This document shows positions 3,265 to 6,929 of a DNA stretch of 8,953 nucleotides, in pieces; position 1 is the stretch's first letter; the number at the start of each line of letters is the position of its first letter. Below the pieces are notes generated by a model, which saw nothing but the letters and a program-made list of their open reading frames with translations, was not told the origin of the DNA and did no database searches. This stretch comes from a virus (taxonomy: Duplodnaviria; Heunggongvirae; Uroviricota; Caudoviricetes): positions 1 to 8,953 of the IMG/VR virus record IMGVR_UViG_2778261447_000007; one strand, given 5' to 3'. The translations under genes were made by a program, and so were the position numbers.

Positions 3265-3690
3265 TCAATGCACAGCCACAGCATTTCCGGCCGGGCCACC
3301 ACGGTTGATCTGGTTGAAGCCAGCTATTGCCACCGCGACAAAATCATCAGCGTCTCTCACCAGTCGTTCCCGCATCTCCACCAGCTCCCGAAAATAAGCT
3401 GAACTGTGGCTGCGCATTCTGGCCACCAGCAAAGGTGGCATTGCCTTTTCGATCGCTGGTAACAACGCCTGAATTTTTTCAACTGCATCAGGGGTGTCTT
3501 TCTCTACCCAGCGGAAAATTTTCTGGGTATTACGCGCCAGGGCTTCAGGGTGGCTGTCGTCGTACAGTTCCGGGAACGTCATACCCAGTTCGAAATACGC
3601 TTTGGTAATTTTCGCAGCCGGTACTTTTTCGCCGTCCGGATGCGCCCAGGCATTCATCGCCATGCGGATGTGCTCATGTTTGATTTTCAT
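3265..3690 (-). CDS. ydaT: YdaT-like protein (141 aa; cII-analogue position in Rac-like prophages)
   Basis: ATG at 3690 overlaps the stop of the upstream Cro-like gene (ATGA). Position and size fit the second gene of the Rac ydaS-ydaT operon; N-terminus 'MKIKHEHI...' recalled as YdaT-like. Not verified by alignment. Confidence 0.65.
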   Translation of the reverse strand: MKIKHEHIRMAMNAWAHPDGEKVPAAKITKAYFELGMTFPELYDDSHPEALARNTQKIFRWVEKDTPDAVEKIQALLPAIEKAMPPLLVARMRSHSSAYFRELVEMRERLVRDADDFVAVAIAGFNQINRGGPAGNAVAVH

Positions 3691-3974
3691 GAATCAACCC
3701 CATCAACTTTTTTGGTGTTAAGCTCATATTTATGACTTGAAGGGGGCGTAATTCCGGTGTATTCCGGCCATATAAGATCCCAGTCATTCGGCCTCAACTC
3801 TCTTCTTGTAACATGCCCTGCAGTTTCTGCTTCTATCATTAACGCACGAACAGGAGACACTGGTGAACTGCCAGATGCCATTTGAGACAAGAAGGACGGA
3901 GACACACCAAGGTTGGCAGCAAATTTTTTTGCTTCTCCAGTTTTTAATGATTTGATGAATTCCTTTAGAGTCAT
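3687..3974 (-). CDS. ydaS: Cro-like HTH regulator (YdaS-like), first gene of leftward early operon
   Basis: ATG at 3974 (M12 of the 3687..4007 ORF, whose upstream start is TTG). 'LKEFIKSLKTGEAKKFAANLGVSPSFLSQMASG' is an XRE/Cro-type HTH. Divergent from the repressor gene. Confidence 0.7.
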   Translation of the reverse strand: MTLKEFIKSLKTGEAKKFAANLGVSPSFLSQMASGSSPVSPVRALMIEAETAGHVTRRELRPNDWDLIWPEYTGITPPSSHKYELNTKKVDGVDS

Positions 3975-4010
3975 GATTTCGATCTCAACATACTTTAGTG
4001 CAAGCAAAAG

Positions 4011-4038
4011 TTTATACGTAACTAAATAAACCAGTCAA
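4011..4038 (-). promoter_or_regulatory. pR-like sigma70 promoter for the leftward ydaS-ydaT-replication operon (TTGACT-N16-TATAAA on minus strand)
   Basis: Minus strand reads TTGACT (plus 4033-4038), 16-nt spacer, TATAAA (plus 4011-4016), about 35 nt upstream of the ydaS ATG. Near-identical to the promoter at 5463-5490. Confidence 0.6.
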
Positions 4039-4077
4039 GTATTTGCTTATTTCGCAATTACTAAAGATAATGCATGT

Positions 4078-4449
4078 ATGGAAACAAGAGAGATTCGGCG
4101 TTTACGCCTCAAAGAGTGGTTCAAAGACAGAACTTTGCCACCCAAAGAGAAAAGTTACTTATCTCAGTTAATGAGCGGTAAGGCTACGTTTGGCGAAAAA
4201 GCAGCTAGACGTATTGAACAAACATATGGGATGCCAGGGGGTTATCTTGATATTGAGCCAGAAGACATAACAGAGTCTCCATCATCAAGAGCTATAGCAT
4301 TAACCCCTAACCAGCTGGAATTGCTACAAATATTTAGTGCATTTCCTGATAATGAACAGCAAGAGATCATAAAAGAACTAAGAAACAAAAAAGAAGCAAT
4401 GGAAGATTTTGTCGCACGTTGGTTGGCGCAGCAAGGTCGCCGCGCCTGA
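4078..4449 (+). CDS. Prophage repressor candidate (RacR-like/cI-analogue HTH regulator, 123 aa)
   Basis: Divergent from the Cro-like gene across about 100 bp. HTH-like 'KSYLSQLMSGKATFGEKAARRIEQTYGMPGGYLD'. C-terminal module is homologous to the downstream PaaR-like protein. No Shine-Dalgarno; a GATAAT -10 sits 8 nt upstream of the ATG. Confidence 0.65.
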   Translation: METREIRRLRLKEWFKDRTLPPKEKSYLSQLMSGKATFGEKAARRIEQTYGMPGGYLDIEPEDITESPSSRAIALTPNQLELLQIFSAFPDNEQQEIIKELRNKKEAMEDFVARWLAQQGRRA

Positions 4450-4483
4450 TGGGAAGCATACTCTTAAAAACAAGATATATCAG

Positions 4484-4882
4484 ATGGGTGTACTCGAAAT
4501 TAGTGCTCTTAGAATTAGGAAGCTTTTGTTGGTAACAGGCTGGAGCCAGGCAGAACTTGCGCGCAGAATTGGCATTACTCAACAATCCGTTCAAAGATGG
4601 GTTTGTGGTATCTCAAGCCCTACAGCAGCTAATCTAGATAAACTATCTGAAGCAACAGGATATCCTCAGTATTGGTTCTTCTTACCGTTAAATGAAGAAA
4701 AAAATGACAGAATACAAGATATAATAAAAATAACTCCTAGGCAAAAGGAGCTACTTCAAACATTTGAGGCATTTCCAGAGGAAGATCAAGAGCAAATGCT
4801 TCAGGAGATGAAAGACAAAAAAGAGTTAATGGATCGCACAATTGAAAGATGGCTCGCTGCCCGGAAAGGGCATCGGGCATAA
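4484..4882 (+). CDS. paaR: PaaR-like HTH transcriptional regulator of a three-component ParE toxin-antitoxin system (paralogue of the upstream repressor)
   Basis: ATG at 4484 preferred over the TTG at 4409, which would overlap the upstream gene by 41 nt. XRE-type HTH 'WSQAELARRIGITQQSVQRW'. C-terminus 'ITPRQKELLQTFEAFPEEDQEQ...ERWLA' aligns with 'LTPNQLELLQIFSAFPDNEQQE...ARWLA' of the 4078..4449 product. Directly upstream of the antitoxin and toxin genes. Confidence 0.6.
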   Translation: MGVLEISALRIRKLLLVTGWSQAELARRIGITQQSVQRWVCGISSPTAANLDKLSEATGYPQYWFFLPLNEEKNDRIQDIIKITPRQKELLQTFEAFPEEDQEQMLQEMKDKKELMDRTIERWLAARKGHRA

Positions 4883-4911
4883 TGACCACCATACACAGAC
4901 GGAGGTGTGCC

Positions 4912-5103
4912 ATGAATACGGCCCTTTCACCAATGGTTTCTGAGTTTGAAACTATTGAACAAGAAAACAGTTACAACGAATGGCTGCGAGCCAAAGTAGC
5001 TGCAAGCCTTGCAGATCCGCGCCCAGCAATTCCCCATGACGAAGTTGAGCGCAGAATGGCAGAACGCTTTGCTAAAATACGCAAGGAACGGAGTGAACAG
5101 TAA
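4912..5103 (+). CDS. paaA: PaaA-like antitoxin (63 aa) partnered with ParE
   Basis: ATG at 4912 with GGAGG Shine-Dalgarno 6 nt upstream; TAA stop abuts the parE ATG. 'MNTALSPMVSEFETIEQENSYNEWLRAKVA...' matches the PaaA2 antitoxin of E. coli O157 paaR2-paaA2-parE2 as recalled. Confidence 0.7.
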   Translation: MNTALSPMVSEFETIEQENSYNEWLRAKVAASLADPRPAIPHDEVERRMAERFAKIRKERSEQ

Positions 5104-5388
5104 ATGTTACCTGTGTTATGGCTTGAAAGCGCAGATACCGACCTGGATGATATAACTAGTTACATTGCTCGTTTCGACATAGATGCGGCAGAACGCTTAT
5201 GGCAGCGATTAAGGGGGTGTGTGCTGCCATTATCCGAACATCCGTATTTATACCCCCCAAGCGACAGAGTGCCAGGCTTACGTGAGATTGTGGCTCACCC
5301 CAATTATATAATTCTGTACCGCGTGACAACCTCAAGTATTGAAATAGTAAACGTAGTCCATACCCGCCGACAGTTCCCTGTAACATAA
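5104..5388 (+). CDS. parE: ParE/RelE-superfamily toxin (ParE-like, 94 aa)
   Basis: Immediately follows the antitoxin stop. Size and sequence character ('LWLESADTDLDDITSYIARFD...IVAHPNYIILYRV') typical of ParE toxins. Confidence 0.8.
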   Translation: MLPVLWLESADTDLDDITSYIARFDIDAAERLWQRLRGCVLPLSEHPYLYPPSDRVPGLREIVAHPNYIILYRVTTSSIEIVNVVHTRRQFPVT

Positions 5389-5413
5389 CCCTCTGCCCAT
5401 CAACACAGCCTTA

Positions 5414-5441
5414 AACACTCTCAAAGAGAGTGTTATTTTTT
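5414..5441 (+). terminator. Rho-independent terminator ending the repressor/toxin-antitoxin transcription unit
   Basis: Perfect 9-bp stem AACACTCTC (5414-5422) / GAGAGTGTT (5426-5434), 3-nt loop, followed by A then T6 (5436-5441); 26 nt after the parE stop. Confidence 0.85.
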
Positions 5442-5462
5442 ACTGTTTAGTTAAGTTGTAGA

Positions 5463-5490
5463 TTGACTGTTAAGTTTATTTTTGTATAAA
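5463..5490 (+). promoter_or_regulatory. pL-like sigma70 early promoter (TTGACT-N16-TATAAA) directed toward the 72-aa ORF and RecE-like gene
   Basis: TTGACT 5463-5468, 16-nt spacer, TATAAA 5485-5490. Flanked by GTTAAGTT direct repeats (5450-5457, 5469-5476) and a TTTAGT motif shared with the pR-like region. Confidence 0.55.
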
Positions 5491-5678
5491 CTAATTTCAC
5501 CAACCCACCCCGCCCCACAGAACGCAGGGCAATACTTCGAGTTACCAGGCAGTGGTCAGGGGTTAAGTAGCCAGCCCGAGGCGTATGAACATGACGGCAG
5601 GGTTTAACTTTAACTATGCAGCAGGTTTTTGTTCCGCTACCCCGGCGTTAAGGGGAAACAGCACTGAGAGAAATCAGT

Positions 5679-5897
5679 ATGCAGAAGCGAGAACCCGTCA
5701 TCATCGCGCCAGACTATACCGATGATGAACTTTATGAGTGGATGCGCCAGAAAATTAAGGCAGCGCAGGACCTGAAATGGGCCAATGAAGCCAGGGCTAA
5801 GCAGGCTGAAAATCTGTCCGCTCTGGAGCAGGATATCACCAATCTGGAAAAAGCAGCGGCATTAAGCATTGCCAGAATGATTACATACCCGCGTTAA
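5679..5897 (+). CDS. Hypothetical small early protein (72 aa), first ORF downstream of the pL-like promoter
   Basis: ATG at 5679 with GAGAG upstream. Predicted helical, charged; 'ENLSALEQDITNLEKAAALSIARMI' looks coiled-coil-like. No Arg-rich N-like motif. Function unknown. Confidence 0.5.
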   Translation: MQKREPVIIAPDYTDDELYEWMRQKIKAAQDLKWANEARAKQAENLSALEQDITNLEKAAALSIARMITYPR

Positions 5898-6248
5898 TAG
5901 CTAACCAACGAAGCTAAGGTTGGTAATTAAGGAGTTCTCCACGGGTAAGGTGGAGTACGTGCGCCGGACACGGGTGAGCATCCGGCACTGACAGTTTACT
6001 GAAAGGATATTTCCCTGAAAAGTCAGACCATAACGCGAAAGCGCACGGCGAGGTAGCTGGTTCATAGATAGTCTGTCGTTAAATTTTCGTCGACCGTGCG
6101 CTTCCGGTTGTGGCACTCCGCGAAATGGCGCGGCGTAATCATGGCGGGGTACCCTTCCCCTTGAGGACACCGGGTTGTCAGGCTGACCATGCGCCTGAGT
6201 GACAACCCCGCTGCAACGCCCTCTGTTATCAATTTTCTGGTGACGTTT

Positions 6249-6291
6249 GGCGGTATCAGTTTTACTCCGTGACTGCTCTGCCGCCCTTTTT
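6249..6291 (+). terminator. Possible intrinsic terminator (GGCGG...CCGCC stem then T5), weak
   Basis: GGCGG 6249-6253 pairs with CCGCC 6281-6285, followed by C and T5 (6287-6291). Loop is long (27 nt, with an internal CAGT/ACTG stem), so non-canonical. Confidence 0.3.
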
Positions 6292-6295
6292 AAAG

Positions 6296-6443
6296 TGAAT
6301 TTTGTGATGTGGTGAATGCGGCTCAGCGCACGCGGAACAGTTAAAACCAAAAACAGTGTTATGGGTGGATTCTCTGTATCCGGCGTTAATTGTTAACTGG
6401 TTAACGTCACCTGGAGGCACCAGGCACCGCATCACAAAATTCA
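6296..6443. repeat. 17-bp imperfect inverted repeat pair (16/17) flanking a ~114-bp segment that contains tandem GTTAAC palindromes
   Basis: Left arm TGAATTTTGTGATGTGG (6296-6312); right arm CCGCATCACAAAATTCA (6427-6443) is its reverse complement with one mismatch. Interior has GTTAACTGGTTAAC (about 6393-6406) and CCTGG-aggca-CCAGG. Confidence 0.6.
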
Positions 6444-6460
6444 TTGTTTAGGACGCGATA

Positions 6461-6643
6461 ATGGAAACGTTATTACCAAACGTCAATACGTCTGAAGGTT
6501 GTTTTGAAATTGGTGTCAGAATCAGTAACCCTGTATTTACTGAAGATGCCATTAATAAGAGAAAACACGAACGGGAGCTATTAAATCAAATATGCATTGT
6601 TTCAATGCTGGCCCGTTTACGCCTGATGCAAAAAGGACGCTGA
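6461..6643 (+). CDS. Hypothetical small protein (60 aa)
   Basis: ATG at 6461, 17 nt after the right inverted-repeat arm, with AGGA upstream. Stop is 2 nt before the next ORF start. No family recognised. Confidence 0.4.
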   Translation: METLLPNVNTSEGCFEIGVRISNPVFTEDAINKRKHERELLNQICIVSMLARLRLMQKGR

Positions 6644-6645
6644 CA

Positions 6646-6837
6646 ATGAATACAGCATTTGCACTCGTTCTGACAGTTTTTCTTAATACAGGCGAACCAG
6701 TCGATCTTGTTATTGGTATACATGACTCAATGAAAGAATGCATGGCTGCCGCAGCGGAACAGAAAATTCCCGGCAACTGTTATCCGGTTGATAAAGTTAT
6801 TCGCATGGACAATAACGAAATCCCGGCTGGTCTTTAA
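6646..6837 (+). CDS. Small protein (63 aa) with hydrophobic N-terminus and conserved Cys; possibly DUF1482/YebW-like
   Basis: ATG at 6646 (M19 of the 6592..6837 ORF) with AAGGA Shine-Dalgarno. 'MNTAFALVLTVFLNTGEPVDLVIG...C...CYP' resembles YebW-type small prophage proteins as recalled. Uncertain. Confidence 0.45.
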   Translation: MNTAFALVLTVFLNTGEPVDLVIGIHDSMKECMAAAAEQKIPGNCYPVDKVIRMDNNEIPAGL

Positions 6838-6929
6838 AACAGTTCCGTAATAAACATCCGATTTCATTCTTATATGCCAGCAATGGCAGGGATTTGTTCA
6901 CCCTTAAATCTGTAATGAGGTAAAACAAA

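Follow-up and report, generated by a model that had tools for sequence, protein, structure and literature searches.

The early promoters of CP-933P, the cryptic E. coli O157:H7 prophage also known as Sakai Sp12, were described as PR933P, PRM933P and PL933P by Jurenas et al. (2021, mBio; PMC8630535). In both the -35 and the -10 hexamer, PR933P and PL933P are identical (PMC8630535). The starts of PR and PRM were mapped by 5' RACE (rapid amplification of cDNA ends), and paaR2 was found to be leaderless, its message starting on the ATG (PMC8630535). The 97-bp intergenic region is covered by DNase I footprints of PaaR2 (~78 bp) and YdaS (65 bp), and four 18-bp inverted repeats with the half-site consensus GTTTAGTAA were reported (PMC8630535). 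In reporters based on green fluorescent protein (GFP), PR and PRM were repressed up to 45-fold, and PL933P-gfp went down ~100-fold upon expression of either PaaR2 or YdaS (PMC8630535). Here we compare with this system the immunity region of an 8,953-bp stretch of DNA (the window) from the Caudoviricetes record IMGVR_UViG_2778261447_000007 of IMG/VR, in which two similar promoters point outward from a block of repressor and toxin-antitoxin genes. These twin promoters are very probably the early PR and PL of a CP-933P/Rac-like lambdoid prophage of E. coli, flanking its immunity module. The comparison covers the sequences and their conservation, operator statistics, protein homology, the terminator before PL, the YdaT site and the family-wide architecture. 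The coordinates of all features are collected in Table 1.

The minus-strand sequence of 4010-4038, TTGACTGGTTTATTTAGTTACGTATAAAC, and the plus-strand sequence of 5463-5491, TTGACTGTTAAGTTTATTTTTGTATAAAC, were compared by direct reading. Both contain TTGACT, a spacer of 16 nucleotides (nt), TATAAA and a following C, letter for letter as the initial annotation had it. The two were there called near-identical, which is true for the core elements TTGACTG and GTATAAACT but not for the mid-spacer, which differs; overall, 23 of 30 positions agree. When both strands of the window were searched for TTGACT-N16-TATAAAC with up to one mismatch, only two matches were obtained, 4010-4038 on the minus and 5463-5491 on the plus strand, for a chance expectation of 0.00 and no match in 200 shuffles. 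A repeat search returned the same pair as the longest inverted repeat in 3950-5560, with arms of 30 nt (77%) at 4009-4038 and 5463-5492. Since the arms reach 4009 and 5492, the shared match is one base longer than previously described and ends in ...TAAACT. Both promoters are kept in relatives at 87-100% identity, and the nearest genome, E. coli GF60 (NZ_CP172185), is 99.9% identical over 3650-5661.

The outward orientation was read correctly from the start, with the minus-strand promoter facing the cro/cII/replication side and the plus-strand promoter the dicF-dicB-exonuclease (recombination) side. The repressor/toxin-antitoxin block between them is present as well, although it holds two regulator genes and not one. 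The assignment of the pair as pR/pL analogues is backed by geometry, by gene content and by homology to the experimentally characterised CP-933P system. That the resemblance is a chance match or the relic of a sequence duplication, devoid of regulatory meaning, is hardly credible. A generic promoter scan, it is true, shows the window to have no more promoter-like sites than expected. Nevertheless, the nil expectation and the retention of both sites in relatives contradict such an origin, the layout recurs in dozens of genera, and the homologous sites have been tested experimentally (PMC8630535).

In Sp12 (locus L004), PR reads TTGACT-18 nt-TAAACT and PL reads TTGACT-16 nt-TAAACT. TTGACT/TAAACT is the only hexamer pair common to the two, and neither of them has TATAAA. 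By the published primers, the reporter fragments span L004 4922-5039 for PL and 3985-4058 for PR and end 6 and 4 nt past TAAACT, respectively; these fragments of PMC8630535 map to positions homologous to the window promoters. In alignments of the window with NCTC9112, RM10466 and Sp12, the strings TTGAC, TAAACT, AGTCAAGTATTTGCTT and ATTACTAAAGATAAT are invariant. Judged by sequence, the window promoters are the orthologues of PR933P and PL933P.

This comparison bears directly on the position of the -10 hexamer, for which overlapping TATAAA and TAAACT candidates occur in the window. To judge from the alignments, it is most likely TAAACT behind an 18-nt spacer rather than TATAAA behind 16 nt. 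The register first proposed, with the same promoters, TATAAA as -10, a 16-nt spacer and an incidental C after it, is an unlikely one. TATAAA fits TATAAT at five of six positions, its 16-nt spacer is acceptable and it is present at both sites; however, it lacks the T at hexamer position 6, for which reason the promoter scan chose TAAACT. Moreover, the CP-933P pair that was published as identical has TTGACT/TAAACT and no TATAAA, TAAACT is invariant in the four relatives while TATAAA is not, and at 94 sites of the wider family TAAA[CT]T stands at a modal distance of 17 nt from the -35. The following C, incidental in that register, is accounted for as the last base of an operator half-site.

Under the TAAACT register, the shared TATAAAC is predicted to be the outer half-site of an 18-bp palindromic operator lying over each -10. 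The C after TATAAA is conserved because TATAAAC is this half-site and C its last base. The last five bases of TATAAAC together with the next T make TAAACT, so that the outer half-site forms most of the -10 hexamer. Support for these operators was sought with an 18-bp weight matrix (~GTTTAGTnnnnACTAAAC) made solely from regions upstream of the repressor in distant loci, to the exclusion of the window and its close relatives. The three best sites of this matrix in the whole 8953-bp window are those over the PL -10, over the PR -10 and over the spacer and -10 of PRM, in this order (Table 1). In shuffled windows the maxima averaged 7.6 bits, with 12.7 as the 95th percentile. The right half of the PRM operator, TTACTAAAG, is invariant in four relatives. 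The centres of the two strong operators in the right operator region (OR) are 39 bp apart, as they are for the two strong repeats of Sp12. The matrix scan detected no full-site counterpart in the window of the two weak intermediate OR repeats of CP-933P. Compared with the lambda-type tripartite layout, there are two strong sites at OR and one at the left operator region (OL), and the remaining candidates are half-sites only.

Recurrent TTTAGT/ACTAAA motifs had been proposed as operator half-sites by the initial annotation, and TTTAGT in this role agrees with both the published GTTTAGTAA consensus and the matrix from distant relatives. Two of the positions given, 3994-3999 and 5446-5451, are exact, while the other two copies really lie at 4021-4026 and 4060-4065, 2 nt away from where they had been put. 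In the whole window, GTTTAGT with up to one mismatch was found 25 times for 21 expected, which is not above chance, and the count of GTTTAGTAA with up to two mismatches likewise showed no excess. Eight of the 25 matches fall within 3993-4066 and 5445-5480, so the motif is clustered and not enriched. As the window-wide motif counts are at chance level, what information there is comes from the clustering and the 18-bp matrix.

The repressor ATG begins (A at 4078) with the seventh base past the PRM -10, leaving a gap of 6 nt. The GATAAT-N6-ATG geometry is the same as in Sp12, and by analogy it implies that the repressor would be translated from a leaderless mRNA made at PRM.

Several observations weigh against the reading of the pair as PR and PL with TAAACT as their -10. 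The 18-nt spacer is suboptimal, and TAAACT agrees with the TATAAT consensus at only four of six positions. The -10 hexamer of CP-933P was deduced here from the published statement that the -35 and -10 are identical, from the Sp12 sequence and from the mapping of the primers. A generic sigma-70 scan scores both sites merely 9/12 without singling them out, and it finds nine such promoter-like sites in the window for 10.4 expected. OL has one strong full operator plus half-sites, as opposed to the three operators published for CP-933P. Finally, the C-terminal half of the repressor is moderately conserved (70% identity to PaaR2 overall), and oligomerisation and looping may differ.

The likeness to CP-933P extends to gene order and orientation. 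PL comes after the paaA-parE operon in both prophages, with the same conserved leader behind it (see below), and the PR and PL hexamers, the two invariant OR strings, the 6-nt gap between the PRM -10 and the ATG and the 39-bp distance between the palindromes over PR and PRM are common to the two. They differ in that the repressor-gene DNA is only ~78% identical and ydaS is more diverged. The PL spacer has 18 nt in the window and 16 nt in Sp12, and the half-sites of the window are more degenerate (GTTTAT/ATAAAC versus GTTTAGT/ACTAAAC). The operon of the window has four genes, an extra DicA-like regulator standing between the repressor and paaA, whereas CP-933P has the three genes paaR2-paaA2-parE2. 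The centres of the OR and OL operators are 1464 bp apart in the window and ~1026 bp in Sp12. The immunity type of the window occurs in 19 of 5426 complete E. coli genomes, and a more diverged copy (in the band of 60-80% identity that includes Sp12) is found in a further 593 of them. Seventeen of the 19 are aligned over 80% or more of the query 3650-5700, the fourth gene (4484-4882) included; the other two align in two pieces, and the one of them that was examined, NCTC9112, has no fourth gene.

The same architecture was followed through the family of the repressor. When the single repressor protein was used as query, no locus was retrieved from the genome contigs; an alignment of homologues was needed, which retrieved 65 loci with one genome per species, and the pattern count was made on 68 loci (495 kb). 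The pattern TT[GT]AC-N16-20-TAAA[CT]T was found 48 times in the PR slot (minus strand, at most 200 nt 5' of the repressor ATG), 46 times 3' of the repressor on the plus strand and only six times anywhere else in the 495 kb. Both sites are present in 38 of the 68 loci, and a spacer of 17 nt is the most frequent. Yersinia, Proteus, Photorhabdus, Xenorhabdus, Massilia, Pandoraea, Nitrosomonas, Pasteurellaceae and others are represented among these loci. In the window, as in most of the family loci (L005-L069), exactly 40 nt separate the 5' end of the PR -35 from the repressor ATG. From this distance, a leaderless repressor message and an OR of fixed geometry look like traits of the family.

Heteroimmune relatives provide a second comparison. 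Locus L070 has its own PR/PL pair, which matches at 24 of 30 positions and carries different operators of the ACACTTTnAAAGTGT type; NZ_CP027340 has a prophage of this L070 type. Among 20 PL types that stand before one shared leader, nine have an inverted twin matching at 22 or more of 30 positions 0.3-3.5 kb upstream, and none has one downstream. The PL of the window occupies the slot in which these 20 heteroimmune relatives have their own PL. The matched pairs differ by repressor type; therefore, promoter/operator pairs change together with the repressor. Such co-change is the signature of a lambdoid immunity module.

Residues 1-62 of the PaaR2-like repressor are ~90% identical to the N-terminal domain of PaaR2 in PDB entries 7nkv, 8c3k and 8c3l (phmmer against PDB; 7nkv_A, E 4.3e-31). 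The 123-residue protein gave no Pfam match, hence no S24 (LexA-like, RecA-cleavable) domain was seen, and it ends in a C-terminal domain of DicA/PaaR type. PF00717 does occur in more distant homologues that share the DNA-binding domain. The same N-terminal domain, at 62-83% identity, is fused to an S24 LexA-like peptidase in P0031, P0037-P0041, P0045 and P0047, proteins from Yersinia, Martelella and others in which S24 replaces the PaaR/DicA-type C-terminal domain. As the domain is shared by both kinds of fusion, one operator family would serve RecA-cleavable and non-cleavable repressors alike.

The second regulator of the block has a C-terminal domain 48% identical to that of the first; aligned along its full length with K-12 DicA, it shows 30% identity, and its identity to the one repressor of the heteroimmune prophage L070 is 69%. 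This second protein (4484-4882), instead of the PaaR2-like one, might be the repressor acting at the twin promoters, as it belongs to the DicA family and its homologue is the only repressor in L070. We regard this as very improbable, however. The matched pair of L070 has ACACTTTnAAAGTGT operators, of which the window holds none beyond chance; the operators of the window fit the matrix of the PaaR2-type DNA-binding domain; and NCTC9112 (L002), which is without the gene of the second regulator, retains the same PR and PL. The search of the window for L070-type operators gave only a chance-level match, located in the stem of the terminator. With the PaaR2-like protein as repressor of the twin promoters, the second regulator could be an orphan repressor that gives immunity to another type of phage, or it could form mixed oligomers with the first through the shared type of C-terminal domain.

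PL sits just past the terminator of the repressor/toxin-antitoxin operon and faces small open reading frames (ORFs), dicF, dicB, a DUF1482 gene and an exonuclease gene. Its predicted transcript begins with a leader of ~110 nt. Sp12, NCTC9112, RM10466 and L070 conserve the stretch that runs from the predicted start of PL to ~5609, and the leader was located at L004 5039-5150, L070 3957-4068, L022 4483-4594 and L033 6112-6226. A conserved core recurs in loci of Arsenophonus, Winslowiella and Pantoea, and at least 120 IMG/VR contigs carry it as well. As a mobile module, the leader is common to at least 20 heteroimmune PL types from prophages of Escherichia, Arsenophonus, Pantoea and Winslowiella, and the PL/operator segment 5' of it is swapped between immunity types, HK022-like operators included. 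The hairpin that closes the conserved loop CAAUACnnCGAGUUA shows covariation, with 13 of 14 pairs changing on both sides. Its double-change cells number 43 versus 15.8 in shuffles, none of 500 shuffles reaching 43, and the signal falls when the pairing is slid. With the covariance model R1, one copy per locus was found, always on the PL side, and none in HK022 (L071) or K-12 Qin.

The leader had no match in Rfam 15 at E values up to 1, and its sequence strings had none in literature searches. A single-sequence fold of the window leader is no more stable than shuffles (z = +0.57), and RNAalifold on MAFFT alignments recovered the hairpin only in part. A long-range helix, P1, is seen in single folds of divergent lineages. 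A loop-junction pseudoknot AUAC/GUAU, noticed by eye, was dropped because L022 does not covary. AgvB and AsxR were ruled out as identities of the leader since those lie near PR'. The leader is also not among the listed small RNAs of Sp12 and is not mentioned in the Pas small RNA preprint.

Conservation of an RNA that starts at the predicted PL start site could also mean that the plus-strand element is the promoter of a stand-alone small RNA gene (5498-5609) and that dicF and dicB are expressed from elsewhere. The authors of the CP-933P study could, moreover, assign no function to the ORFs 3' of PL933P (PMC8630535). Such a gene is nonetheless quite improbable, as no intrinsic terminator follows the element; plus-strand terminator-like sites past 5434 begin only at 6875, and the CCCCGGCGTTAAGGGG hairpin at ~5642-5657 has no T run. 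From 5679 onward all genes of the window run in one direction, and the equivalent promoter of K-12 Qin runs straight into ydfA-dicF-dicB without the RNA element.

Taking the element as the 5' end of the PL transcript, it is possible, though rather doubtful, that the leader represents a cis-acting RNA of a new class that mediates processive antitermination, or a different element recruiting RNA polymerase or a factor, by which transcription from PL would get past the DicF terminator. Neither an N gene nor a nut site was seen 3' of PL, where this different conserved leader stands. The positions of lambda nutL and HK022 putL are exactly where the leader sits, and from this position only one may guess at a put-like or nut-like role. 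Like HK022 putL, it comes right after PL, and loci with HK022-like PL operators (L088, L095 and L105) carry it at the place of putL. It is, however, without similarity to putL and putR, only words of 6-8 nt being returned by blastn-short and R1 giving no match in L071. HK022 has both putL and putR, in contrast to the leader, of which there is one copy per element and none 3' of PR.

Two side observations concern the sequences past the leader. E. coli GF60 (L001, 11013 onward) departs from the window at 5662, right after the leader; it continues with a different small ORF, a gene for a Rha regulator and kil, and the window with the ORF 5679-5897, dicF and dicB. The point of divergence suggests that sequences were joined by recombination where the leader module ends on its 3' side. 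Right after DicF and just 5' of dicB, 6288-6481 (+) gave a sub-threshold STnc100-like match of 36.7 bits (gathering score 47).

Table 1. Promoters, operators, genes and RNA elements of the window
Feature	Position	Strand	Details
PR analogue	4009..4038	-	-35 TTGACT plus 4038-4033, 18-nt spacer, -10 TAAACT plus 4014-4009; homologous to PR933P
PR alternative register	4016-4011	-	TATAAA, 16-nt spacer
PR predicted start site	near 3999-4003	-	genes driven: ydaS, ydaT, replication
PL analogue	5463..5492	+	-35 TTGACT 5463-5468, 18-nt spacer, -10 TAAACT 5487-5492; homologous to PL933P
PL alternative register	5485-5490	+	TATAAA, 16-nt spacer
PL predicted start site	near 5498-5500	+	
PRM analogue	4043..4078	+	-35 TTGCTT 4043-4048, 17-nt spacer, -10 GATAAT 4066-4071
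Operator over PL -10	5474-5491		18-bp palindrome GTTTATTTTTGTATAAAC; matrix 16.3 bits, best in window
Operator over PR -10	4010-4027		18-bp palindrome, plus strand GTTTATACGTAACTAAAT; 13.9 bits, second-best; equivalent of CP-933P IR3
Operator over PRM spacer and -10	4049-4066		18 bp, ATTTCGCAATTACTAAAG; 13.0 bits, third-best; equivalent of CP-933P IR1
Isolated half-site CTTTAGT in PR leader	3993..3999	+	at the place of CP-933P weak repeat IR4; full 18-mer 0.3 bits
Perfect half-site GTTTAGT just 5' of PL -35	5445..5451	+	
Weaker half-site copies GTTAAGT	5450-5456, 5469-5475		near PL
ydaS-like gene (Cro analogue)	3687..3974	-	95 residues; Pfam YdaS_toxin, E 6.5e-10; 62% identical to CP-933P YdaS
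ydaT-like gene (CII analogue)	3265..3690	-	141 residues; Pfam YdaT_toxin above cut-off; 86% identical to CP-933P YdaT
Replisome organiser gene and DnaC-like gene		-	on the PR side
Perfect YdaT operator TTGATT-N6-AATCAA	3680..3697		TTGATTTTCATGAATCAA; ydaS stop/ydaT start; 1 match, 0.07 expected
PaaR2-like repressor (CI analogue)	4078..4449	+	123 residues; 70% identical overall to Sakai PaaR2
Second regulator	4484..4882	+	132 residues; DicA-like, Pfam HTH_3 and PaaR/DicA-type C-terminal domain
paaA-like antitoxin	4912-5103	+	Pfam PaaA2, E 1e-20
ParE toxin	5104-5388	+	Pfam ParE_toxin, E 2.5e-16
Intrinsic terminator of repressor/toxin-antitoxin operon	5414..5441	+	9-bp stem and AAA loop (5414-5434), then ATTTTTT
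Leader, 5' end of PL transcript	5498..5609	+	~110 nt; covariance model R1, 117 bits
DicF small RNA gene	6235..6286	+	Rfam RF00039, 76.7 bits (gathering score 48)
dicB, cell-division inhibitor gene	6461..6643	+	Pfam DicB, E 1.5e-37
DUF1482 gene	6592-6837	+	Pfam DUF1482
Rv2179c-like exonuclease ORF	from 6930, runs off window	+	Pfam

The module can be written in the order PR/OR, PaaR2-like repressor, DicA-like regulator, paaA-parE, terminator, OL/PL. A working model may be proposed that takes over from the CP-933P experiments the activity of the promoters, their repression by the two regulators and translation without a leader. In a lysogen-like state, PaaR2-like repressor made from PRM would bind the operators over both -10 hexamers. 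It would thereby shut the PR set (ydaS, ydaT and replication genes) as well as the PL set (leader, dicF, dicB and the exonuclease gene), and it would also control PRM through OR. Upon loss of the repressor, the YdaS-like Cro would bind the same region and shut PRM first, which would make a bistable switch. YdaT would act at TTGATT-N6-AATCAA (3680-3697) and restart repressor synthesis. The recognition motif used for this site was taken from PMC9986795, and by its sequence the site is likely the analogue of PRE. Looping between OR and OL by an oligomeric repressor, over the 1464 bp between their centres, may be possible because PaaR2 is reported to form octamers.

The arrangement can be compared with that of lambda, for which we draw on established knowledge and on the comparison made in PMC8630535. 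Common to both are the divergent PR and PRM and a PL that lies 3' of the repressor operon and is co-oriented with it. The repressor mRNA, leaderless in lambda, is predicted to be so in the window too. As in lambda, one repressor would act on operators at the two ends of the immunity region, and in both, accessory genes stand between the repressor and PL, rexAB in lambda and paaA-parE in the window. In contrast, there is no sequence similarity, and the repressor of the window has no S24 peptidase domain. Lambda has OR1-3 and OL1-3, whereas the window has 18-bp palindromes of which only two are strong at OR and one at OL. Lambda differs further in the N gene and nut site, neither of which was seen 3' of the PL of the window.

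The DicA/DicC region of K-12 Qin is another point of comparison. Its repressor has a helix-turn-helix domain and the same type of C-terminal domain and is divergent from a cro-like gene, and ydfA-dicF-dicB is reached from a promoter just 3' of the repressor gene. This downstream promoter has repeats of the TGTTAGTCAT type in its spacer and -10, and such repeats also occur upstream of dicA. However, Qin has another DNA-binding domain and operator, has no toxin-antitoxin genes between the repressor and the promoter, and is without the leader element. In the dicA-ydfA gap of K-12 Qin (L192, 1840-2010), the promoter-like sequence is TTGACC-17 nt-TAATCT, whose spacer contains a TGTTAGTCAT-type repeat. 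Of the leader region, no more than the final ~50 nt are kept before ydfA; the structured element is missing.

The finding of the pair is right but ordinary, since experiments on the related prophage CP-933P of E. coli O157:H7 had characterised its PR and PL before. That the PR/PRM/PL logic of CP-933P holds in a rarer immunity variant is little new in itself. The added value lies in the corrected anatomy of the -10 and operator, in its family-wide spread and in two side leads that could give rise to new experiments, namely the putative orphan DicA-like repressor in the immunity operon and the conserved leader with its covariation-supported hairpin. If the leader were indeed an antiterminator, it would let PL transcription reach dicB and the recombination genes in prophages without N. 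The operator half-site that doubles as the -10 TAAACT is conserved wherever the DNA-binding domain occurs, from Enterobacterales to Burkholderiales, Nitrosomonas and Pasteurellaceae. This design offers a ready rule for annotating the boundaries of immunity regions and helps to predict which prophages are homo-immune.

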